Assembly: GCA_026415575.1 (NCBI GenBank) | Contig: JAOAGV010000001.1 | Location: 49,399-113,398, forward strand | DNA length: 64,000 nt | Direction: 5' to 3' | Source: Candidatus Sumerlaeia bacterium | GTDB taxonomy: Bacteria > Sumerlaeota > Sumerlaeia > JADFCW01 | In this document: piece by piece, positions 3,538 to 28,070 of the stretch | Layout: the number at the start of each line of letters is the position of its first letter | Position numbering within the stretch: the first letter of the stretch is position 1 | The notes under the pieces: model-generated | The model's database searches: none | What the model saw: the letters and a program-made list of their open reading frames with translations, nothing else | What the model was told of the DNA's origin: nothing | Program-made: the position numbers and the translations under genes

Positions 3538-3684
3538 GACTTTGGACTGCGGCAGCCATGTTGCCGCTTTGCTGAAATCGTCCGTCGTCAGACAAAGCGT
3601 TTGCACTGTGGAAAACCGCCCCGCTTGGCGGGGTTGATCTTGGCGAAAAAGAAAGCGGCAGCGCGGCTGCCGCAGTCCAAAGCG
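3538..3684. repeat. MITE-like palindromic element, copy 1 (about 146 bp, about 30-bp terminal inverted repeats)
   Basis: The left end TTTGGACTGCGGCAGCCATGTTGCCGCTTTG is matched at the right end by its reverse complement, AAAGCGGCAGCGCGGCTGCCGCAGTCCAAAGC. The internal part is conserved with copies at about 13.9 kb and 25.5 kb. The element lies in a 580-bp intergenic gap. Confidence 0.7.
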
Positions 3685-5269: not shown

Positions 5270-6937
5270 ATGAGGTTTGCCATGGTCTCTGCACTCTTTG
5301 TCGCTTTGCTTGCGCCCGCAGCGGCGGGTGAACCCAATCCTAGTGTTGAAAAACCGACTGCTCCTGACGAAATCCCCTCCAACGTTGTCAAAGTTCTGCG
5401 CACGACCAACAAGGCGCAGATCAACCGGTATGTCCCGAAGGTTTATGCATTCAAGAATGTAAATCCCTTCAGTGTGGTTCGCTTTTATCGGCGAGTGATA
5501 GAACTCGAAGAGGGACGGTTTGCAACATTTGTCGCTCCGGATGGGAAGAGCGGGTTGGTCTTGGTGGTTGTGCCGGAATACCAGATCGAATCGCTGGACA
5601 AGCTCATGACGTCGCTGGACCGGCCGGACCTGACCACATCGGGCGACGATTATTACAAATACATCCAGTTGCGCCACCGCGCCGCCGACGACGTGGGGTT
5701 TCTGGGGGCTGTCTGGAGCCAAGGAACGCGCAGCAGCAGCCGTCCGCCGGGCGGCTCGCGGGTCTCGGACGTTGAGTTTTATTGCGATCTGGAAACCAAC
5801 GCCATCTTTGTGCAAGGCCCGCAAAGCATTGCCGACTCGGTGGAATCCGCCGCCCGGGCGCTTGATCTGCCGGTGCCGCAAGTTCTGATCGAGGCGACGC
5901 TCTATGAGCTGGACTTGAACAACGACAATGCCATCGGCTTCGATTACTATGCGTGGAAAAACGGTCCGGGCCGCAATCTGTTTGCCGTTGGCGCTTATGC
6001 CGAATACGAAAAAGTCAACGAGCTGCAGGGGGGAGTGCCGCTTTACAACAGCGGTGTGAACAGCTTCGGACTTCCTGAAAGCCGCTTTCGCAGCCGCGGG
6101 GCCAACGCCGCCTACTTTCTCGATATTCCTTCGGCGTATCTAGACTTTTTAGTGACCAAGGGCGTGGGCCGGATCATTACAACAGGCCGCATTCTGAGCA
6201 AGATTCCGACGACATATAAGTCGGGCTTGAACGCCTTCGGACAGGCGACGTTTGATCCCGAAACGGACCGCCCCGCGCTCGCCGCCGCTCCCGCCGAGTT
6301 TCGCGCCAATGACGAGGTGCTTTACTACAAGGTCGAGACCGGTCCGACGCCCCGCGCCGGCGCGCGCGCACCGGCAAGTGTCCTCGACCCCTACGGCGAC
6401 GACCCAACCTATCCCGACAACCGCACGGTGGTCGGCAAGGCAGTGCCGCTGCGGGCCGGCGGCACGACGGTGAACCAGCGCACGCTGGCCGCCGTGGAGG
6501 TCGGAACGTTGCTGCAAGTGACCCCCCGCATTGCCGAGGAAGACATGTCGCTCCGGCTGCGAATGGAGGTCTCCAGCCTTCTGGGATTTGACGGCACGGG
6601 CAATCCACGCATCAGTGCCCGTCGCGTGGAAACTGACGTGCGCGTTCGCGACGGCGAAGAGGTCGTTTTCGGCGGCATCGAGCGGACATCGCGGATGCAG
6701 TCCACGCGCAAGATGCCGCTTCTGGGTTCGCTGCCCGGGATCGGCTGGGCGTTCGGACACGAAATGGGCGGCAGCAAAAAATGCGTAGTGGTGGCCGTGA
6801 TCCGGGCCGTCCGGCAGTCGGGCGGTCTAACGGCGGAGGCTGCCGAAGTCGCCCGCCAAGTCGGCGATGAGGCGCCCGCGCCTCTGCCACCCAACCGGTT
6901 CGGTTTTGATCAGTGGTGGATTGACAATACGCGGTAA
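5270..6937 (+). CDS. secretin-family outer-membrane channel protein (GspD/PilQ-like), paralog 1
   Basis: A signal peptide, then a secretin-N-like region (VVKVLRTTNKAQINRYV...). The secretin domain begins QVLIEATLYELDLNNDNAIGFDYYAWKNGPG. The C-terminal motif is KMPLLGSLPGIGWAFGHE. Confidence 0.75.
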   Translation: MRFAMVSALFVALLAPAAAGEPNPSVEKPTAPDEIPSNVVKVLRTTNKAQINRYVPKVYAFKNVNPFSVVRFYRRVIELEEGRFATFVAPDGKSGLVLVVVPEYQIESLDKLMTSLDRPDLTTSGDDYYKYIQLRHRAADDVGFLGAVWSQGTRSSSRPPGGSRVSDVEFYCDLETNAIFVQGPQSIADSVESAARALDLPVPQVLIEATLYELDLNNDNAIGFDYYAWKNGPGRNLFAVGAYAEYEKVNELQGGVPLYNSGVNSFGLPESRFRSRGANAAYFLDIPSAYLDFLVTKGVGRIITTGRILSKIPTTYKSGLNAFGQATFDPETDRPALAAAPAEFRANDEVLYYKVETGPTPRAGARAPASVLDPYGDDPTYPDNRTVVGKAVPLRAGGTTVNQRTLAAVEVGTLLQVTPRIAEEDMSLRLRMEVSSLLGFDGTGNPRISARRVETDVRVRDGEEVVFGGIERTSRMQSTRKMPLLGSLPGIGWAFGHEMGGSKKCVVVAVIRAVRQSGGLTAEAAEVARQVGDEAPAPLPPNRFGFDQWWIDNTR

Positions 6938-6965
6938 CGCACAGGCGGAGAAAGGAAAAGGAACA

Positions 6966-8762
6966 ATGCGCGGCGAAAAGAACAAATCATTCTGTTCGGC
7001 AGGTTGGACATACGGGAGGCGACTCTGGAAACCTGCATGGACGGTCGTTGCTGCTCTGCTGGTCGCCCTGAGCGTGGTTCACTACGGTGCCGTTATTATG
7101 TTTGCGGCACAATTCGATGAGAGCACCGGCGTCAATACGCGTCGCGGCGATCCCAGCCCCACGGCGGCCGAGAGCAACCTGGACGACTATACCTTTCAGG
7201 ACGAGCAGATCAATCTGGCCCCCGACAGCGGCGTGGTTAAAGTCCTGCGCGTCAACCAGAAGAATCTGATCAACGACTACGTGACGGAGATGATTCCGTG
7301 TCGCAACGTCAGCGTGCGGGAGATTCGCCATCTGATGCGGCAGGTTTGCGGGGCCGAAGGCGGGCGCGCCGAAGTCGTTCGCGACAAAAACCAAAAGGAA
7401 TACTTCATTCAGGTGATCTGCCCAAGGTTCCAACTGCCCTACCTGCGCGAAGCGATTGCGGCGCTCGACCAACCGTGGGTTCGCTACATGGACGACGGTG
7501 CGTCGGTCACCTACTACACGGCCAGATTTCGCGACATCCGCGCCGTGGACCGCCTCGCCACAATCTGGGCCGGCGACGGCGAAAGCCAAATTGACCTCGC
7601 CCGCAATGCTGTCCTTCGCTGGGACGAACCCTATCGCGTGAAGGAATACCGAACCCAAGGCGTGGTCATGGTGGATATCCCCGTCAATCAGGTGTTGCTC
7701 GATTTAAAAATCTACGAGATCAATGTAACCAACGACATCAAGTTGGGTTTGGACTACATTGCGTGGAAAAACGGCCCGGGACGCAATCTTGCAGAGTTGA
7801 TCGCCGCCGGCATGGAAAACCGCGAGCACTTCGCCAACGCATCGAGCATCTACAATCCGGTCTATCCGCGCGTGGTCAATCCCGGCCCCCGCGATTTGCA
7901 TCTGACGCGCGAGTTTGCCACCGGGCAATACCACGCTTTTGCCAACTATCTGATGACCTCGGCGTATCTGGATTTTCTGGTCTCCAAAGGCCGCGCAAAA
8001 ACGCTGGCTGCCACGCAGCTTCTGGCCACCAGCGGGCAGGGGCGCAACGCCGGCACCTCACCCGCACGGTTTGAGGCCGTGGACGACATCGCCGGCTTTG
8101 AAATCCACCCCAACGACGCGGGTGTCGAGACGGGAACCGGCGCGCGCCCGACGCGTCTGGCTACCACAATGGGACAGCTGATCGTGGACGGGGCCACGTC
8201 GCGCGCCATTCGCGACGACGACGGCAATCCGACGTTCACGTATTCCCCAAATCCGATCACCGTGGATACGCCCGTCCACAGCCGGACGCTGCAGTATGGA
8301 CTGCGCGGCAAAACTGGCCTTTTTTTTGAAGTGATTCCCCACGTGGCACTCGATGCCTGCGAGTTGGAGATCGTCGCCGGTGCATCGAGTCTCGCGGGCA
8401 CCGGCCCCGACGGGCTGCCGATTCTGGCGCAGCGGACAATCTCGGCGCAGATCAGCGTGCCCAATGGCCAGCCGATTGTGCTCAGCGGTCTGTCGCGCGT
8501 CACACGAGTCCACAACAACGCACGCATGCCGATTCTGGGGAAGATTCCGATTTTGGGCTATGTCTTCGGCGGCGAGATGGGCGTGCAGCGGGAAACACAG
8601 GTTGTTTTTATCCTCACGCCGACGATTATTGCGGCCTCGGATTCCGCCGTGACCTTGGGACATCAGGCGCGCGAGGCCATCGCGCGCGTCAAGGGCGAAA
8701 TCAAGACGATGCCGCCGCGCCATCCGCTGGGATTCGACCAGTGGCTGCTGGGGGAAGAGTAG
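6966..8762 (+). CDS. secretin-family outer-membrane channel protein, paralog 2
   Basis: The same architecture: VVKVLRVNQKNLINDYV; QVLLDLKIYEINVTNDIKLGLDYIAWKNGPG; ARMPILGKIPILGYVFGGEMGVQRETQVVFILTPTII. The shared C-terminal tail (GFDQWLL versus GFDQWWI) shows a tandem duplication. Start at the MRGEKNK ATG at 6966. Confidence 0.75.
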   Translation: MRGEKNKSFCSAGWTYGRRLWKPAWTVVAALLVALSVVHYGAVIMFAAQFDESTGVNTRRGDPSPTAAESNLDDYTFQDEQINLAPDSGVVKVLRVNQKNLINDYVTEMIPCRNVSVREIRHLMRQVCGAEGGRAEVVRDKNQKEYFIQVICPRFQLPYLREAIAALDQPWVRYMDDGASVTYYTARFRDIRAVDRLATIWAGDGESQIDLARNAVLRWDEPYRVKEYRTQGVVMVDIPVNQVLLDLKIYEINVTNDIKLGLDYIAWKNGPGRNLAELIAAGMENREHFANASSIYNPVYPRVVNPGPRDLHLTREFATGQYHAFANYLMTSAYLDFLVSKGRAKTLAATQLLATSGQGRNAGTSPARFEAVDDIAGFEIHPNDAGVETGTGARPTRLATTMGQLIVDGATSRAIRDDDGNPTFTYSPNPITVDTPVHSRTLQYGLRGKTGLFFEVIPHVALDACELEIVAGASSLAGTGPDGLPILAQRTISAQISVPNGQPIVLSGLSRVTRVHNNARMPILGKIPILGYVFGGEMGVQRETQVVFILTPTIIAASDSAVTLGHQAREAIARVKGEIKTMPPRHPLGFDQWLLGEE

Positions 8763-8838
8763 GATTTTGGATTTCGATTTGCGATTTTGGATTGACGGCC
8801 ACGCCGTATCACCTTTTTTCCGCTTTGGGTGAAAATGG

Positions 8839-9444
8839 CTATGGGGCGATTCGGACGCGGCGGCCCTCGATGCGGACCTTGCCTTGGGCGATGAGCGTGA
8901 TTGCGCGGGGGAGCAGTTTGTGCTCCTCCTTGAGAATTCGCGCCGACAGCGTCTCAACCGTGTCGTCTTCTTCGACCGGCACGGCCGCCTGCAGGATGAT
9001 CGGACCGTGGTCCACCTGATCATCCACGAAATGGACGGTGCAGCCGCTGATCTTGACGCCGTATTCGAGCGCCTGCCGCTGGCCTTCCAGTCCGGGGAAC
9101 GACGGCAGAAGCGCCGGATGGATGTTGATGATGCGGTTGGGGAAGGCTTCGAGCAGCGGCGCTTTGACGATGCGCATATAGCCGGCGAGGACAATGAGAT
9201 CAATGCCGCGCGGCTTGAGAAAATCGGCGATGGCTTGGTTGTGCGCCTTGTTGGTCGGAAAGTCCTCGCGGCGAAACACGGCTGTCTCGATGCCGTGGGC
9301 GCGGGCGAACTCAAGCGCTTTGGCCTGCGGGTTGTCGCTCACAAGCACATTGACGACGGCGGGCACTTCGCCCGCTTCAATTTTTTCGACGATCGAGGCG
9401 AAGTTGCTGCCCCGACCCGATGCCATAACGGCAAGGGTAAGCAT
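8839..9444 (-). CDS. purN: phosphoribosylglycinamide formyltransferase
   Basis: The sequence LTLAVMASGRGSNFASIV...IDLIVLAGYMRIV...NIHPALLPSFPG is the classic PurN. Confidence 0.9.
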   Translation of the reverse strand: MLTLAVMASGRGSNFASIVEKIEAGEVPAVVNVLVSDNPQAKALEFARAHGIETAVFRREDFPTNKAHNQAIADFLKPRGIDLIVLAGYMRIVKAPLLEAFPNRIINIHPALLPSFPGLEGQRQALEYGVKISGCTVHFVDDQVDHGPIILQAAVPVEEDDTVETLSARILKEEHKLLPRAITLIAQGKVRIEGRRVRIAP

Positions 9445-9461
9445 GGTTGCATCTTCCTATT

Positions 9462-9677
9462 TCATCTTTCGTCAGGAATTATACCAGTATCTTTAAAAAT
9501 CTGTCGAAGCAGTCCGATACTAATTGTCCGACCACCATGCATCGGCACCGTGGTGCGACGGCCATCGGGGTGAATATATACAGCGTGACTACCCTTTTGA
9601 CGATCCAAAACAAAGCCGTGCGCTTCCAATAAGCGAACAAGTTCATTAGCGCTTAGGCGTGGAAATCGCGGGCTCAT
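9462..9677 (-). CDS. hicA: HicA-family toxin (mRNA interferase)
   Basis: 71 aa. LVRLLEAHGFVLDRQKGSHAVYIHPDGRRTTVPMHGGRTISIGLLRQI is the YcfA/HicA fold signature. It overlaps the hicB stop by 4 nt. Confidence 0.85.
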   Translation of the reverse strand: MSPRFPRLSANELVRLLEAHGFVLDRQKGSHAVYIHPDGRRTTVPMHGGRTISIGLLRQIFKDTGIIPDER

Positions 9678-9895
9678 ACGGCCACAGCAACCTTTTCGGT
9701 TCGCACTTCGACCGGTATGGGCTCACCATGCTGCAACCGCGATTCGATATGCGCCTCGATGGCCTCTCGAATGTTGGCAATCGCCTCGTCCTCAGTTTCG
9801 CCTTCCGTATAGCAGCCTTGCAGCGCAGGGCAAATCGCCACGATTCGACCGTCCTCATCTTTCTCCAAAACCACTGTAAAAAGGTATTCTTTCAT
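9674..9895 (-). CDS. hicB: HicB-family antitoxin
   Basis: 73 aa. YLFTVVLEKDEDGRIVAICPALQGCYTEGETEDEAIANIREAIEAHIE is UPF0150/HicB-like. It sits directly upstream of hicA. Confidence 0.8.
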   Translation of the reverse strand: MKEYLFTVVLEKDEDGRIVAICPALQGCYTEGETEDEAIANIREAIEAHIESRLQHGEPIPVEVRTEKVAVAV

Positions 9896-9932
9896 AATCC
9901 CACCTCGATCGAATGCTTGGGATATGCCGGCG

Positions 9933-10976
9933 CTATTGGATCAATACTTCCCGCTTCCCCCTTTTCACCTCGCCGATCACAAACGGATTTTCGCCCGCCT
10001 TGTCGCAGATTTCAAGCGTTCGTTCGACAGAATCCGGCGGAACGATGGCGACCAGACCGATCCCCATGTTGAACGTGTGAAACATCTCGCTGTTCTTGAC
10101 CGGGCCTAATCGGGCCAGCTGGCGGAAGATGTTTGGCACGGGCCAGCGGGTGGAGTCAATTTCGACGCCGAGACCTTCAGGCAGAAGACGGCGGAGATTG
10201 TCGGGCAGCCCGCCGCCGGTGATGTGCGCAAGGGCATGCACGGGCACGCCTTCGCACAAGGCCAGTGCCGCGCGCGTATATATACGGGTGGGGCGCAAGA
10301 GAACGGCACTGAGAGGTTCGCTTTCGCCGTCGAGCGGCCCGTCGAGTTTCATCCGGCGTCGGCTGAACAAGATTTTGCGGGCCAGCGAGTAGCCGTTGCT
10401 GTGCAGGCCGCTGGAGGCCAAGCCGACGAGGACATCGCCTGCGGCAATCGCGCTCCCGTCGAGGATTTTCGACCGCTCGACCACGCCGACGCCAAATCCG
10501 GCAAGATCCAGATGCCCTTTGGCATAGAGGCCGGGCATTTCGGCGGTCTCGCCACCGAGCAGTGCACAGTCGGCCTGCCGGCAGCCTTCGAGAATGCCTT
10601 CGAGCACGGCGTTCCATTGCGCGCCTTGCAATTTGCCCGCCGCGTAGTAGTCGAGGAAAAACAGCGGCTTTGCTCCGCAGCAAATGATGTCGTTGACCAC
10701 CATGGCGACCAGATCAATGCCGATGGTGTTGAGCGTGCGGGCCTGGAGCGCAACCAGCAGTTTGGTTCCAACGCCGTCAGTCGAAGCGACGAGGCAGGGC
10801 TCGCGCCACGCGGAAAGGTCGAGCGGAAATACGCCGCTGAACAAGCCGATGCCGGGGACCCTCTGCGCGAGGCCGGCAATCAAGCGGTCTTGTTTTTCGA
10901 TGTTCACACCGGCTTGTTTGTAGGAGATTGTTCGGGTTGTTTTGGCCACGTTGTCCATCCTGTCGGTATTGTCCAT
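9933..10976 (-). CDS. purM: phosphoribosylformylglycinamidine cyclo-ligase (AIR synthetase)
   Basis: SYKQAGVNIE...GIGLFSGVF...VASTDGVGTKL...DLVAMVVNDIICCGAKPLFFLDY. Confidence 0.9.
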   Translation of the reverse strand: MDNTDRMDNVAKTTRTISYKQAGVNIEKQDRLIAGLAQRVPGIGLFSGVFPLDLSAWREPCLVASTDGVGTKLLVALQARTLNTIGIDLVAMVVNDIICCGAKPLFFLDYYAAGKLQGAQWNAVLEGILEGCRQADCALLGGETAEMPGLYAKGHLDLAGFGVGVVERSKILDGSAIAAGDVLVGLASSGLHSNGYSLARKILFSRRRMKLDGPLDGESEPLSAVLLRPTRIYTRAALALCEGVPVHALAHITGGGLPDNLRRLLPEGLGVEIDSTRWPVPNIFRQLARLGPVKNSEMFHTFNMGIGLVAIVPPDSVERTLEICDKAGENPFVIGEVKRGKREVLIQ

Positions 10977-11011: not shown

Positions 11012-12421
11012 TTATCGCTCCGCGGCCACCCGCACGGCCCGGGCCTCCAAAATCTCCTTGAAATGATTGCGGGGGCGGCCGCCCGGATAATGACCGCTGA
11101 AACAAGCCATGCAAAATCCTCCTTGATTGTCAAACACCCTCTCAAGTCCTTCAATGCTGAGGAACTGGAGCGAGTCGGCGGTGATATAGGCACGCATGGC
11201 TTCGAGATCGCGCGAGCTGGCCAGAAGTTCCTCCCGCGAAGGCGTGTCAATGCCGTAGTAGCACGGGTTCTTCCATGGCGGACAACTTAGGCGATAGTGG
11301 ATTTCGGCGGCGCCGGCCGACCGAAGCATTTTGACAATTTTCTGCGCCGTCGTGCCCCGCACGATCGAATCATCCACCACCACCAACCGCTTGCCCACCA
11401 GCAACTGCTGCAGGGGGTTGTATTTGATCTTGGCGCCGAAGTCGCGGATAGACTGCCGCGGTTCGATAAACGTGCGCCCGACATAGTGGCTGCGAATCAG
11501 CCCGATCTCGAACGGGATGCCTGTTTGCTGCGAGTAGCCGAGGGCGGCGGGATTGGACGAGTCGGGAACGGGCACCACCATATCGGCCGCCACCGGATGC
11601 TCGATGGCCAGCTGGCGGCCGAGGCGCTTTCGCATTTCATAGACGCTGCGGCCGGCGATCACGCTGTCGGGCCGCGCAAAATAAATGTGCTCGAAAATGC
11701 AAAACGACGGCTCGATGCGCGGCTGAATGGGAAACTCGCTGCGGACCCCCTCGCCGTCAATGGTCACCAGTTCGCCCGCCTCCAGTTCCCGCACCAACTG
11801 CGCCCCGATGATGTCGAACGCGCAGCTTTCCGAGGCCACCACATAGGAGTCGCCGAGGCGGCCGAGGCACAACGGCCGGAACCCGCGCGGGTCTTTGACC
11901 GCAATCAACCGACCGGGCCGCAGAATAAGAAAGGAATACGCCCCTTGCATCTGGCGCAAAGCATCTTTGAGCGCTTCGAGAAAATCGCTTTCTCCGCTTC
12001 GGGCAATCAGGTGGAGGAGAATTTCGGAGTCCATGGCGGTCTGGAAGATGGCGCCTTTTTTTTCGAGGCGTTCCTTCAGTTCCGCCGCGTTGGTCAGGTT
12101 GCCGTTGTGGGCCAGAGCCAGCGAGCCCCCCCAGTAATTGGCCATGAGCGGCTGGGCGTTGCGCGAGGCGCTCGAACCGGTGGTCGAGTAGCGCACATGA
12201 CCAATGGCGGCGTGGCCCTTGAGGCCCCCGAGAGTGCCGCGCGTGAAAACTTCCTGCACCAGTCCCTGGTCGGCATAGTGATACAGACGCTCGCCGTCGG
12301 TCGAGCAAATACCGGCGGTTTCTTGTCCCCGATGCTGGAGGGCATAGAGTCCGAGATAGGCGAGATTGGCCGCTTCGGGATGGTTCCAGATGCCGAAAAT
12401 ACCGCAGAATTCCTTACGCAT
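11012..12421 (-). CDS. purF: amidophosphoribosyltransferase
   Basis: CGIFGIW N-terminal Ntn nucleophile, then a PRTase domain (LVVVDDSIVRGTT) and C-terminal Fe-S cysteines. GAGGAG RBS. Confidence 0.9.
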   Translation of the reverse strand: MRKEFCGIFGIWNHPEAANLAYLGLYALQHRGQETAGICSTDGERLYHYADQGLVQEVFTRGTLGGLKGHAAIGHVRYSTTGSSASRNAQPLMANYWGGSLALAHNGNLTNAAELKERLEKKGAIFQTAMDSEILLHLIARSGESDFLEALKDALRQMQGAYSFLILRPGRLIAVKDPRGFRPLCLGRLGDSYVVASESCAFDIIGAQLVRELEAGELVTIDGEGVRSEFPIQPRIEPSFCIFEHIYFARPDSVIAGRSVYEMRKRLGRQLAIEHPVAADMVVPVPDSSNPAALGYSQQTGIPFEIGLIRSHYVGRTFIEPRQSIRDFGAKIKYNPLQQLLVGKRLVVVDDSIVRGTTAQKIVKMLRSAGAAEIHYRLSCPPWKNPCYYGIDTPSREELLASSRDLEAMRAYITADSLQFLSIEGLERVFDNQGGFCMACFSGHYPGGRPRNHFKEILEARAVRVAAER

Positions 12422-12595
12422 GTCGGTCTTCGCTCCTCGACCGAGCCCGCGGCCATTTCGATGTCAGGAGAAGAAAAAGAAATTACCGCGGCGCCCGCCG
12501 CGCGCCCTTGGAAAGCCATCGGCAGGAACAATGAACGGCGAAATTCGGCTTATCAAATGAATTCCGTTGAGGCCAAACGCACCCGTTTGGCGGGG

Positions 12596-13800: not shown

Positions 13801-14046
13801 TTTGGACTGCGGCAGCCACGCTCCCGCTTTTTCCCTTTGGACTGCGGGAGCCATGCTCCTGCTTTTTCTTTTACCAAACTCAACCCCCTGCCGGCAATCT
13901 GCTTTGGACTGCGGCAGCCACGCTGCCACTTTCTTTTGTGCCAAGTTCAAACCCGCCAAGCGTCGGTTTTCCCTTCAGTAACGACGCTTTGTCTGACAAT
14001 GGGCGCTTCCAGCAAAGCGGTAGCAGGCTGCCCGCATTCCAAAGCC
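13801..14046. repeat. MITE-like element cluster: one full inverted copy (about 13901..14046) plus two extra terminal-repeat half-copies (13801, 13835)
   Basis: TTTGGACTGCGGCAGCCACGCT occurs three times. The reverse complement of 13901..14046 aligns along its whole length to copy 1 at 3538..3684. Confidence 0.65.
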
Positions 14047-25512: not shown

Positions 25513-25656
25513 TTTGGACTGCGGCAGCCATGCTGCCGCTTTGCTGAAATCGTTTGTTGTCAGGCGAAGCGTCGGCGCTGAGGAAAGAACCCGCGCTTGG
25601 CGGGTTTGAATTTAGCACGAAAGAAAGCGGCAGCATGTCTGCCGCAATCCAAAGCG
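25513..25656. repeat. MITE-like palindromic element, copy 3
   Basis: TTTGGACTGCGGCAGCCATGCTGCCGCTTTGCTGAAATCG...CGCGCTTGGCGGGTTTGAA...AAAGCGGCAGCATGTCTGCCGCAATCCAAAGC is collinear with copy 1. Confidence 0.65.
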
Positions 25657-25825: not shown

Positions 25826-27202
25826 CTAACTTTCACACTCTTTCGAGTGCTCTCGCCACAGGCCTTTTCGTTTTTCGCGCGCCTCGGCTTCGTATTGCTC
25901 GAAACGCTTGCGGTGGCGGTAGGGGTGCGAGCGGTCGGCGCGGGCATAGCCGTCGCGGATCATGCGCGCGTTAAGAAACTTTTTGTTGCTCAGGTGGACG
26001 TAGGCGGGACCAGAAGCGCCGTCGGCGAGCGGCCCGTGGTCGTTGCTGAGTTCAAGCCCGCTGCTGCGAACCATGCGCTCAAGATGTTCGATTGCCAGTT
26101 CCTGCGCGCGAGATTTGCTTTCGACAGAAGGCCACGGGGCGACGCCGAGCAGCGTGATGGTGCGTCCATCGCGCAGCAACAGTTCGGCAGGACTCAGGAC
26201 GGTTTTCAGTTGAGCCTTTTTCTTCGGGAATTGCTGTTTCACCGTGACGCGTGTCCCATACGAGTTTTCCCGCGGATCCACAGCGCGGCGAATTTGCACA
26301 CTACCGCTTGCGGCTGCGGGGCCTGCGCTCCAGCGCCGGATACGTTCCTCGAAATCTTCGGGCGAGGCGGACCGCTCGATGAACTCAAGGTTCGGCAGCC
26401 CGATCGCGTTGAACAATTCGCCGCCCTCGCGCATCCGATTCTCGATGGTTGCGCGGAATTCCGGGTTGATCTCGTAGCCCACAGAATTGCGGCCGAGTCG
26501 GTGCGCCGCCAGCGAGGTCGTCCCGCTGCCGAGAAAGGGATCGAGCACGGTTTCACCGGCAAAGGTGAACATGCGAATGAGCCGGCGCGGCAGTTCGAGC
26601 GGAAAGGCGGCCGGATGCTCTCCCTGACGGACGCCGCTGAAATTCCAGTGGCCGTAAAAATACTCGTTCCACTCCTCAGTCGTCAGGCGCGCGGCTTCTT
26701 TGGCGGCAAGCGAGGGCGGAGGGGGCGCCTTGCCGGGTTTTTTGAAAATCACGATGAACTCATAGTCAATCTTGATGATGCCATTGCGCGGAAACGGAAA
26801 GGAACCCATGATTGCCGCGCCGCCCGACGTATTGCATGTGGTAACCTTTTGCCAGATGATTGCGCCCATATAGTCGAGACCGAGTTTTTTTTCGCAAAAG
26901 CCGACAATTTCCTCGCGGATGGGAATTACTTTGTAGCGTCCATAGTGGGCGGCGCGGGCGAACTGGTCGCCGATGTTGACGCACAGCCGGCAGCCGTCGT
27001 GGAGCACGCGCGCACATTCTTCCCACACCAGATTCAGATTGTTGATGTAGGCGCGATAGTCATCGTGAAAGCCGATCTGGTCCGCCGCGCCGTAATCTTT
27101 GATCTGCCAATAGGGCGGCGAAGTGACGACCAGATGAACGCTCCGGTCGGGCAGTTCCGGCATCGCGCGGGAATCGGCAAAGATGATTTTGTGCGTGGAC
27201 AT
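25826..27202 (-). CDS. DNA methyltransferase (beta-class, SPPY motif: probable N4-cytosine MTase) fused to a C-terminal SNase-like (thermonuclease-fold) domain
   Basis: Motif IV TSPPYW precedes motif I DPFLGSGTT, which is the beta permutation. The C-terminal 150 aa (TVLSPAELLLRDGRTITLLGVAPWPS...GPAYVHLSNKKFLNARMIRDGYA...EAEAREKRKGLWR) aligns to staphylococcal nuclease topology. The canonical VDTPE metal site reads VAPWP. Confidence 0.8.
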   Translation of the reverse strand: MSTHKIIFADSRAMPELPDRSVHLVVTSPPYWQIKDYGAADQIGFHDDYRAYINNLNLVWEECARVLHDGCRLCVNIGDQFARAAHYGRYKVIPIREEIVGFCEKKLGLDYMGAIIWQKVTTCNTSGGAAIMGSFPFPRNGIIKIDYEFIVIFKKPGKAPPPPSLAAKEAARLTTEEWNEYFYGHWNFSGVRQGEHPAAFPLELPRRLIRMFTFAGETVLDPFLGSGTTSLAAHRLGRNSVGYEINPEFRATIENRMREGGELFNAIGLPNLEFIERSASPEDFEERIRRWSAGPAAASGSVQIRRAVDPRENSYGTRVTVKQQFPKKKAQLKTVLSPAELLLRDGRTITLLGVAPWPSVESKSRAQELAIEHLERMVRSSGLELSNDHGPLADGASGPAYVHLSNKKFLNARMIRDGYARADRSHPYRHRKRFEQYEAEAREKRKGLWREHSKECES

Positions 27203-27551
27203 AAAGGCGGCAAGTAATCCTCACTCTCAATCTGTTACCTTGCAAATGAAATGGTGAATTCGTGTCCCGAGCGATTCAAGTGTGAATGCGCGACTGCACC
27301 GTCAGTTTTCCAAGATACTGATAGTGCCACAAAAACGGGGGAAGAATCCGACAGTTATTACTATATGCATTGTGTGGAACACGGAGAGTGTTTTTGTGGG
27401 TTTGGCATTTTTATCTTGCACTCTGCGGTTACTTGATGCCAATCTTTATTAGAGCCATAATGAAATACGCTTTACGGGGTAGGCAACATAGGAATTTGCA
27501 CTTTGGGCAATACCCAGTATCTACTTACAAACCACAGAAAGGAGTAAGAAT

Positions 27552-28070
27552 ATGGCGTATTGGCTATTCTACGTTATGGACTTTGTAAGCGAATCAGGTG
27601 GCTTTAAGAAACAAGTGCAATGGGGGGTTGCAGCACAACAATATCCTACCCCTGATTGGGTAGGCGCATACCAGAATATGCCGCTCCTGCGCAAAATCAA
27701 GTGCGGCGATTGGCTCGTCGCAGGACGCTCTTGTCGGTTTGCGGGCTATGCGCAATCTCTGTCAGACTTTTATCAGGGCGGCCGCTCGCTTGACATACCT
27801 TGCCCCTATGATCCGGACTACCACTTTGAATTTTACGAACGTGTGGATGTGGAATGGTATGTAGTGCCTGGGTATGAAGACTACGAAAACTGGTTGGATT
27901 TGCACGATTTCAAGAAGGCACTCCTGAAGGAACAGCAGAGAACAGGAGGAAGTCGATCCTATAGTCCCATTGATTTCCCCATGGGGAGATGCCTTAAGCA
28001 AATTAATGCGGGTCTGTTCAAGGAACTGCGCAGGCGACTCGACGAAGCCGGCGCACGTCCCATTGGCTGA
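27552..28070 (+). CDS. hypothetical protein, possible PUA-like (EVE-type) modified-base-binding domain
   Basis: N-terminal MAYWLF and KIKCGDWLVAG resemble the EVE hallmarks (M-x-YWL...MK-x-GD). The gene has about 42-50% GC. RBS AAAGGAG. It ends at a TGA in the same frame as the downstream HNH ORF. Confidence 0.5.
   Translation: MAYWLFYVMDFVSESGGFKKQVQWGVAAQQYPTPDWVGAYQNMPLLRKIKCGDWLVAGRSCRFAGYAQSLSDFYQGGRSLDIPCPYDPDYHFEFYERVDVEWYVVPGYEDYENWLDLHDFKKALLKEQQRTGGSRSYSPIDFPMGRCLKQINAGLFKELRRRLDEAGARPIG

Follow-up and report, generated by a model that had tools for sequence, protein, structure and literature searches.

A predicted hicBA toxin-antitoxin cassette in a variable purine-operon slot of a Candidatus Sumerlaeia bacterium

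The purine (pur) operon of an uncultivated Candidatus Sumerlaeia bacterium, represented by a metagenome-assembled genome (MAG), carries two small genes, hicB and hicA, between purM and purN. Both lie in a 64 kb stretch of its DNA (64,000 nt, hereafter the window). We consider it probable that they form a compact type II toxin-antitoxin (TA) cassette of the HicAB family, with the antitoxin gene first, and that the slot between purM and purN is a permissive landing site for exchanged, self-persisting cassettes.

Results

The hicBA pair and its proteins

On the minus strand of the window, the open reading frame (ORF) list and our reading of the sequence give the order purF-purM-hicB-hicA-purN. 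The first gene of the operon in the window is purF, encoding amidophosphoribosyltransferase (11012..12421; TIGR01134, 522 bits). It is followed by purM, encoding AIR synthase (9933..10976; TIGR00878, 398 bits), which ends with a TAG stop codon at 9935..9933, while the operon of this lineage ends with purN, encoding GAR formyltransferase (8839..9444; TIGR00639, 234 bits). The initial annotation had placed hicB at 9895..9674 and hicA at 9677..9462, overlapping by 4 nt and lying between purM and purN on the same strand, and these coordinates proved exact. The products of hicB (9674..9895) and hicA (9462..9677) are 73 and 71 aa long, respectively, and the ATG of hicA shares the letters ATGA with the TGA of hicB. 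The 37-nt purM-hicB spacer (9896..9932) holds the hicB Shine-Dalgarno sequence GAGGTGG (9906..9900). On the other side, the TGA stop codon of hicA is followed, 17 nt later (9445..9461), by the ATG of purN at 9444, and this spacer holds the purN Shine-Dalgarno sequence AGGAAG (9458..9453). Both spacers were read directly on the minus strand; the gene spacing across the insert is 37, -4 and 17 nt.

The insert (9445..9932, 488 nt) had also been described as AT-richer than its flanks, with about 50% GC, in good agreement with the 51.0% that we measured against 61-62% in purF, purM and purN and 59.0% in the window. Equally low values are found in 2.2% of the 488-nt windows across the 64 kb (z = -2.3 for the insert). 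At third codon positions the GC content (GC3) is 0.38 in hicA and 0.57 in hicB, compared with 0.74-0.77 in the pur genes. According to a rough ORF-pair heuristic, no small gene pair of the window other than hicBA is a credible TA candidate, and the NCBI annotation of the source MAG already labels the two proteins as HicA-family toxin and HicB-family antitoxin. Our profile, sequence-to-structure and fold analyses all uphold that assignment, which the initial annotation had made from the letters.

The 71-aa protein matches the HicA profile PF07927 along positions 2-58 of 58, with 80.7 bits against a cut-off of 27. Its sequence matches among PDB entries are 1WHZ (T. thermophilus TTHA1913, E 1.6e-9), 6G26 and 4C26 (B. 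pseudomallei HicA). Within the motif Gly29-Ser30-His31, G29 and H31 are invariant and S30 is nearly invariant across 33 homologs. His31 aligns with the alanine of GSAHH in 4C26, which we take to be the mutated position (H24A) of the catalytic histidine. The AlphaFold2 (AF2) model, with a predicted local distance difference test (pLDDT) score of 87, consists of helix 10-19, strands 23-28, 31-35 and 41-45, and helix 54-64, that is, a dsRBD-like alpha-beta-beta-beta-alpha fold. The top six PDB matches of this model are all HicA-family chains, with template modelling (TM) scores of 0.64-0.79. HicA toxins possess one conserved catalytic histidine, with a conserved glycine and serine beside it, which the N-terminal part of HicB blocks (PMC6159526). 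Judged by its sequence, the protein is a HicA bearing the active-site motif of translation-independent mRNA interferases.

HicB matches both PF15919 (44.5 bits, cut-off 27) and UPF0150 (32.3 bits, cut-off 27.3). However, it covers only positions 1-61 of the 123 in PF15919, and it aligns with residues 3-64 of B. pseudomallei HicB. Its AF2 model (pLDDT 94) displays a beta-beta-beta-alpha arrangement, a degraded RNase H-like fold, and ends in a short tail. Structures on which it superposes are the isolated N-terminal domain of B. pseudomallei HicB (6G1C; TM 0.72, root-mean-square deviation (rmsd) 1.8 A) and single-domain Thermus proteins. A C-terminal domain for DNA binding, of the ribbon-helix-helix (RHH) or Xre-helix-turn-helix (HTH) type, is absent from HicB, in which about 12 residues without predicted secondary structure follow the helix. 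Sequence and model thus describe a HicB that is the toxin-binding domain only and departs from the canonical two-domain form; lacking a DNA-binding domain, it therefore lacks the domain with which canonical HicB represses its own promoter. Makarova et al. (2009, PMC2701414) regard the HicB domain as probably not DNA-binding in itself and note fusions to RHH or Xre domains for only some HicB domains.

Close homologs of this HicB are nearly all exactly 73 aa long, across several phyla. Outside the clade defined below, the nearest HicAs (66-69% identical) all have a 73-aa HicB in front of them, with the same 4-nt overlap and among unrelated neighbours. Since homologs of equal length occur in these unrelated contexts, the 73-aa HicB is not peculiar to the purM-purN site. 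All residues that are invariant across 33 HicA and 39 HicB homologs are kept in the window pair. Altogether, the pair is a bona fide, ordinary member of HicAB, of the short-HicB subtype already recognised (PMC2701414), and its small, adjacent, co-oriented and overlapping genes, together with a patchy, mobile distribution, place it by sequence among type II TA systems.

Content of the purM-purN slot in related loci

PurN homologs form a discrete clade of 26 sequences with 76-97% identity, outside which identity does not exceed 64%. We compared the window with 12 further loci of this clade (13 loci in total; handles beginning with L below). The operon of the clade reads purF-purM-slot 1-purN-slot 2-purD-purE-PRTase-pyrB. 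By sequence comparison, the purM-purN slot (slot 1) is a hot spot, holding differing, unrelated cargo in some genomes and being empty in related ones.

The slot holds hicB-hicA in the window and, in L082, a 77-aa antitoxin-like ORF followed by hicB (81% identical) and hicA (75% identical). L172 and L173 have hicB (92% identical), a hicA stub of 8 codons joined to a divergent purM 3' fragment, a RelB-like gene, ParE(B) and a 159-aa ORF. An orphan hicB-like gene precedes a 62-aa antitoxin-like ORF (anti62) and ParE(A) in L168, and L167 shows a hicB-like gene, a chimeric 105-aa ORF, anti62 and ParE(A). Simpler cassettes are found in L081 and L166 (anti62 and ParE(A)) and in L169 and L083 (RelB-like and ParE(B)). 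ParE(A) and ParE(B) are only 25% identical to each other, and their antitoxins are unrelated. The slot is empty in L084, L170 and L171, where it measures 180, 70 and 87 nt, respectively. In other phyla in which purN follows purM, the gap is mostly 0-30 nt, reaching about 270 nt in Atribacterota, and no hic genes were found in it. The comparison of related pur operons proposed in the initial annotation thus showed that hicBA is not universal.

In the closest genome, L001 (PurN 97% identical to that of the window), slot 1 measures 366 nt. Both edges of the hicBA insert are kept, including a C-terminal piece of HicA and, in part, the 37-nt purM-hicB spacer, and a REP/MITE-like repeat lies in the middle. 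We therefore interpret the missing intact hicBA as a loss and not as a primary absence. PurN is 87% identical to that of the window in L082 and L172. The hicA-purN junction motif GATGA(A/G)ATAGGAAGA is similar in the window, L082 and L001, which we read as a single ancestral insertion. Consequently, the initial description of an insertion inside the operon holds, though not as a one-off recent event: the insertion has an old origin and occurs in other lineages too, as one state of a TA hot spot that spans the clade.

Between the window and L082, the ratio of nonsynonymous to synonymous divergence (dN/dS) of hicB is about 0.06. For hicA, the proportion of nonsynonymous differences (pN) is 0.137, with synonymous sites saturated, the comparable figure for purN being 0.11. 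These values indicate, at the sequence level, that the cassette is under purifying selection. The dN/dS of purN is 0.03-0.11, a sign of strong purifying selection. In all lineages, the cassettes have a GC3 below that of the flanking purN.

A neighbour-joining (NJ) tree of PurN resolved terminal pairs only, with bootstrap support below 35% at deep nodes. The supported pairs were the window with L001 (100%), L083 with L084 (98.5%), L081 with L169 (84%) and L167 with L082 (68%). Slot 1 content differs within every one of them, and since all supported sister pairs differ, turnover of the slot is fast relative to PurN divergence. The slot is empty in the earliest-branching L170 and L171, and an empty slot 1 is probably the ancestral state.

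Exchange of cassettes and the second slot

Traces of recombination were found beside several cassettes. At positions 394-537 of L172, identical to 281-424 of L173, a 47-aa chimeric ORF starts with hicA codons 1-8 and continues in frame into a second, divergent C-terminal fragment of purM. This fragment is 46% identical to PurM residues 308-346 and lies directly upstream of the RelB-like/ParE(B) genes. The arrangement would indicate that a RelB-ParE(B) cassette was imported with a foreign purM flank, cutting hicA short. In L083, a duplicated purN 5' fragment (904-966) lies upstream of the RelB-ParE(B) cassette, next to a TdeIII-type restriction endonuclease gene (50-916, 139 bits), the two standing where purM would be. 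Duplicated purM and purN fragments lie beside the cassettes, and therefore exchange by recombination through the conserved flanks appears to be the route.

The stop codon of the toxin gene lies 0-23 nt from the purN ATG in the relatives. In L166-L168, the final codons of parE(A) contain the purN Shine-Dalgarno sequence GGAGAC, and the stop codon of parE(A) is 0-1 nt from the ATG. In L169 and L083, which carry ParE(B), 17-19 nt matching the tip of parE(A) are kept between the toxin stop codon and purN; this remnant is likely the footprint of a cassette replacement. The 105-aa ORF of L167 (3193-3510) resembles anti62 of the ParE(A) cassette in its N-terminal part and, in its C-terminal part, the RelB-like antitoxin that accompanies ParE(B), which suggests recombination between cassettes inside the slot.

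Slot 2, between purN and purD, is empty in five loci. A RelB-like gene (38 bits) and an acidic 72-aa ORF without a family occupy it in L166 (4655-5159) and L167 (4685-5168). L082 (1644-1841) has the RelB-like gene alone, followed by the contig end, and L169 (4807-5025) has the 72-aa ORF alone. In L081 (2549-3127), we found a divergent hicB-like/hicA pair (HicA 64 bits, 34% identical to that of the window) with a remnant of the 72-aa ORF behind it.

In L166-L171, the genes called within about 4 kb gave no integrase-family Pfam match, and we found no conserved attC-like, inverted-repeat or other repeat boundary around the cassettes. The pur-operon slots do not, then, qualify as an integron-like cassette array. 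Around the insert of the window, the only direct or inverted repeats, as signs of transposition or site-specific integration, were short and at chance level. No HicB match was found in the plasmid collection, and the phage collection yielded only a 41%-identical HicA (Enterococcus and Helicobacter phages), with no vehicle identified.

Separately, the window contains repeats similar to repetitive extragenic palindromic sequences or miniature inverted-repeat transposable elements (REP/MITE-like), with a hairpin of the form GCGGCAGCC-NN-GCTGCCGC. They account for 14 matches in the window, where 0.12 would be expected, and are often paired about 105 nt apart, with copies at 3549-3673, 13809-13929, 25521-25645 and around 60832. 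The copies in L001 lie at 7120-7284, 8107-8190 and 8244-8348, one of them in place of hicBA.

Signals for transcription and translation

A consensus scan identified the terminator-like hairpin of the gene upstream of purF at 12502..12487 and, from there to the end of purN, insert included, no terminator-like sites on the minus strand. Because of this absence, the shared strand and the tight spacing noted above, hicBA is very likely to be co-transcribed with the pur operon. We found no promoter-like site in the 37-nt spacer upstream of hicB; a weak 9/12 match is present within purM (10015..9987). A promoter consensus of the sigma-70 type (TCGACA-18-TATAAT, with TG upstream) is present on the minus strand at 9478..9507, in the 3' end of hicA and 34 nt before the purN ATG. 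This site matches at 11 of 12 positions and is one of two such sites in the 64 kb, against 0.13 expected from shuffles. Both the purN Shine-Dalgarno sequence and this strong promoter-like site are thus located in the 3' end sequence derived from the cassette.

The initial annotation had raised two consequences of the insertion, namely polar effects and a coupling of purine-operon transcription to toxin expression. The coupling finds structural support in the layout of the genes, from which it would follow. A damaging polar effect seems unlikely, since purN is under selection and the 3' end of the cassette supplies its ribosome-binding site (RBS) and a promoter-like site; given the strong purifying selection on purN (dN/dS 0.03-0.11), the gene is probably still expressed.

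An Rfam scan detected no riboswitch (purine, ZTP or other) and no other Rfam family near the operon. The only hit, a Twister-sister ribozyme match inside the purF coding sequence (12135-12229, minus strand), scored 23 bits and so stayed below the gathering score of 34 (E 0.14); we took it as chance.

Other features of the window and of related loci

The sequence that follows purN in the window does not align with L001. A convergent gene of 631 aa ends at 8762, past the end of purN, leaving a gap at 8763-8838. In most other clade loci with enough contig, purD, purE, the PRTase gene and pyrB come after purN; none of these genes was found in the entire 64 kb window. Two adjacent large ORFs on the plus strand (5270-6937 and 6867-8762) have common translated motifs such as GFDYYAWKNGPGRNLF and GLDYIAWKNGPGRNLA and may encode paralogous secretin-like outer-membrane proteins. 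Further away, an ORF at 25826-27202 on the minus strand has an SPPY motif and looks DNA methyltransferase-like by eye. It overlaps an island of 43% GC at 26961-28058, the lowest in the window, and the two may be a restriction-modification island.

In L171, where the purM-purN slot is empty and the 280-nt purN-purD spacer has no ORF of note, genes for a BrnT-family toxin and a DUF2442 protein, along with an 84-aa ORF, are found at 240-1039, roughly 330 nt upstream of purF.

Discussion

We propose that hicBA is read from the host promoter as part of a purF-purM-hicB-hicA-purN transcript, with translation of hicA coupled to that of hicB. HicB would neutralise HicA by covering His31. If HicB, presumably labile, were not replenished, free HicA would cleave mRNA and growth would be arrested. 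In this model, the slot would be a permissive landing site, where promoter-less and terminator-less cassettes are tolerated since purN stays expressed, and relatives would swap cassettes by recombination in the conserved purM and purN flanks. The cassette would persist mainly by its own addictive, selfish properties, and not through a dedicated role in purine metabolism.

Several points weigh against this interpretation. The activity of hicBA in this uncultivated MAG is a prediction from sequence and models. Most comparison loci are unbinned metagenome contigs, whose membership of the clade is defined by PurN identity alone. The proportion of synonymous differences (pS) between the window and L082 is higher in hicBA (0.70-0.80) than in purN (0.49); because of this excess, and of a hicA GC3 (0.38) far below the host value despite apparently long residence, the hicBA allele may have been re-imported and not inherited strictly vertically. 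The PurN tree does not fix the order of cassette gains and losses, as its deep nodes are unsupported. Moreover, the -10 element of the promoter-like site at 9507..9478 is not conserved in L001 or L082, and we therefore treat this site as a lead only. Finally, the recurrence of several TA families in one operon could mean selection for function and not mere permissiveness.

An alternative that we consider unlikely is that the cassette is a domesticated sensor. A stable toxin and a labile antitoxin tied to a host transcript that is needed constitutively would sense the shut-off of transcription, for instance by a phage in abortive infection, or the nucleotide status of the cell, and would arrest growth. 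At least four unrelated cassette types occur on the two slots of one operon, and hicBA appears to be under purifying selection. In addition, HicB has no DNA-binding domain, so that expression would be set by the host promoter. There are precedents in mazEF within the sigma-B operon and, according to a passage in 10.1101/330480, in E. coli hicAB, which is also cited there as having a host-regulated promoter unrepressed by HicB. On the other hand, it is the toxins that are lost most often, as seen in the orphan hicB of L168, the hicA stub of L172 and the orphan antitoxin of L082. Three empty clade members and differing sister lineages are also the pattern expected from selfish turnover. The short HicB is a subfamily-wide trait in unrelated contexts and not an adaptation to the site, and the Rfam scan did not find a known regulatory RNA that would tie the operon to purine sensing.

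A broader version, to which we likewise assign a low probability, would regard the pur operon as a dedicated docking platform. TA cassettes without a promoter or repressor of their own would borrow its transcription, supply an RBS or promoter for purN, act as sensors of shut-off (abortive infection) or of nucleotide demand, and be exchanged via the pur flanks. If this were true, it would represent a distinct mode of TA regulation and mobility, the operon-embedded cassette under host control.

It is quite improbable that hicBA is a decaying, inactive remnant whose ORFs are intact by chance. Many stages of decay are found among the relatives, and most H. influenzae hicAB loci are without hicA (10.1101/330480). 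In the window, however, both ORFs are full length with all homolog-invariant residues kept, dN/dS is about 0.06, and the AF2 models of the two proteins have high confidence.

The simplest reading of the low GC, a recent, lineage-specific horizontal insertion into this one genome, has been largely refuted and now appears highly improbable. Its appeal lay in the composition of the insert (51% GC, with a GC3 of 0.38 in hicA against 0.74-0.77 in the flanks) and in the lack of an intact hicBA in L001, despite a 97% identical PurN. Nevertheless, L001 keeps both insert edges, including the HicA C-terminal remnant, with a REP-like copy in the middle. L082 and L172 carry hicB after purM at the same position (81-92% identical), and in L082, hicA and a junction with purN similar to that of the window are present as well.

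An assembly or binning artefact that put a foreign TA cassette into the operon, conceivable for a compositionally distinct insert in a MAG, is barely credible, given that the purM-hicB-(hicA)-purN order recurs in independent assemblies of JGI/ENA samples (L082, L172, L173) and that the junctions are continuous, coding-dense sequence.

We therefore favour a permissive slot with self-persisting cassettes, and the value of the locus lies in its context: across the 13 loci, cassettes can be followed as if over time, from gain and exchange to decay, which begins with the toxin, and to loss, at two fixed positions of an essential biosynthetic operon. In the literature that we searched, we found neither pur operons nor Sumerlaeota reported to carry TA modules, and no direct precedent for such an operon hot spot. 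A TA hot spot at two slots of the purine operon, with exchange mediated by the flanks, thus appears to be undescribed in the literature searched. These findings raise the question of whether a type II TA without a DNA-binding antitoxin can run purely on host operon transcription, and whether such coupling has a physiological or anti-phage role or is tolerated selfish DNA.

Comparison with known systems

Canonical HicAB/HicBA systems are represented by those of B. pseudomallei (6G26, 6G1C, 6G1N), E. coli (6HPB), Y. pestis (HicA3B3, 4P78) and S. pneumoniae (HicBA, 5YRZ). The HicA of the window shares their alpha-beta-beta-beta-alpha fold (TM 0.64-0.76) and Gly-Ser-His site, and its HicB superposes on their N-terminal toxin-binding domain (TM 0.72, rmsd 1.8 A). 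The mechanism is expected to be alike, with a steric block of the catalytic histidine by HicB (PMC6159526). In contrast, those antitoxins have a C-terminal RHH/HTH autorepression domain that the 73-aa HicB does not have. Identity to the window pair is only about 31-34%, and the window cassette has no upstream region of its own and is embedded in a host operon.

The closest solved relatives are stand-alone proteins of Thermus thermophilus, TTHA1913 (1WHZ), TTHA1756 (2YZT), TTHA0281 (2DSY) and TTHA1013 (1WV8), which were structural-genomics targets. Among these, 1WHZ matches the HicA of the window (E 1.6e-9, 40% identity, TM 0.79), and single-domain proteins of 67-81 aa match its HicB.

Type II TA genes are also known from host operons, as with relA-mazEF in E. 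coli. In Listeria monocytogenes, mazEF lies within the sigma-B operon and shares a transcript with host genes (PMC5308263). The likeness to our locus is that of a type II TA sharing a transcript with housekeeping or regulatory genes. However, mazEF belongs to another toxin family, stands at the edge of the operon and is conserved across the species in question, whereas the window cassette is internal, between biosynthetic genes, in a slot whose content varies among close relatives.

Defence and TA genes have integration hot spots between core genes, and chromosomal integrons contain arrays of promoter-less cassettes. The pur slots resemble both in their fixed position, conserved flanking genes, variable cassettes, frequent turnover and probable expression from an upstream promoter. 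They differ in that they lie inside an operon and in that exchange apparently proceeds via homology of the purM and purN flanks.

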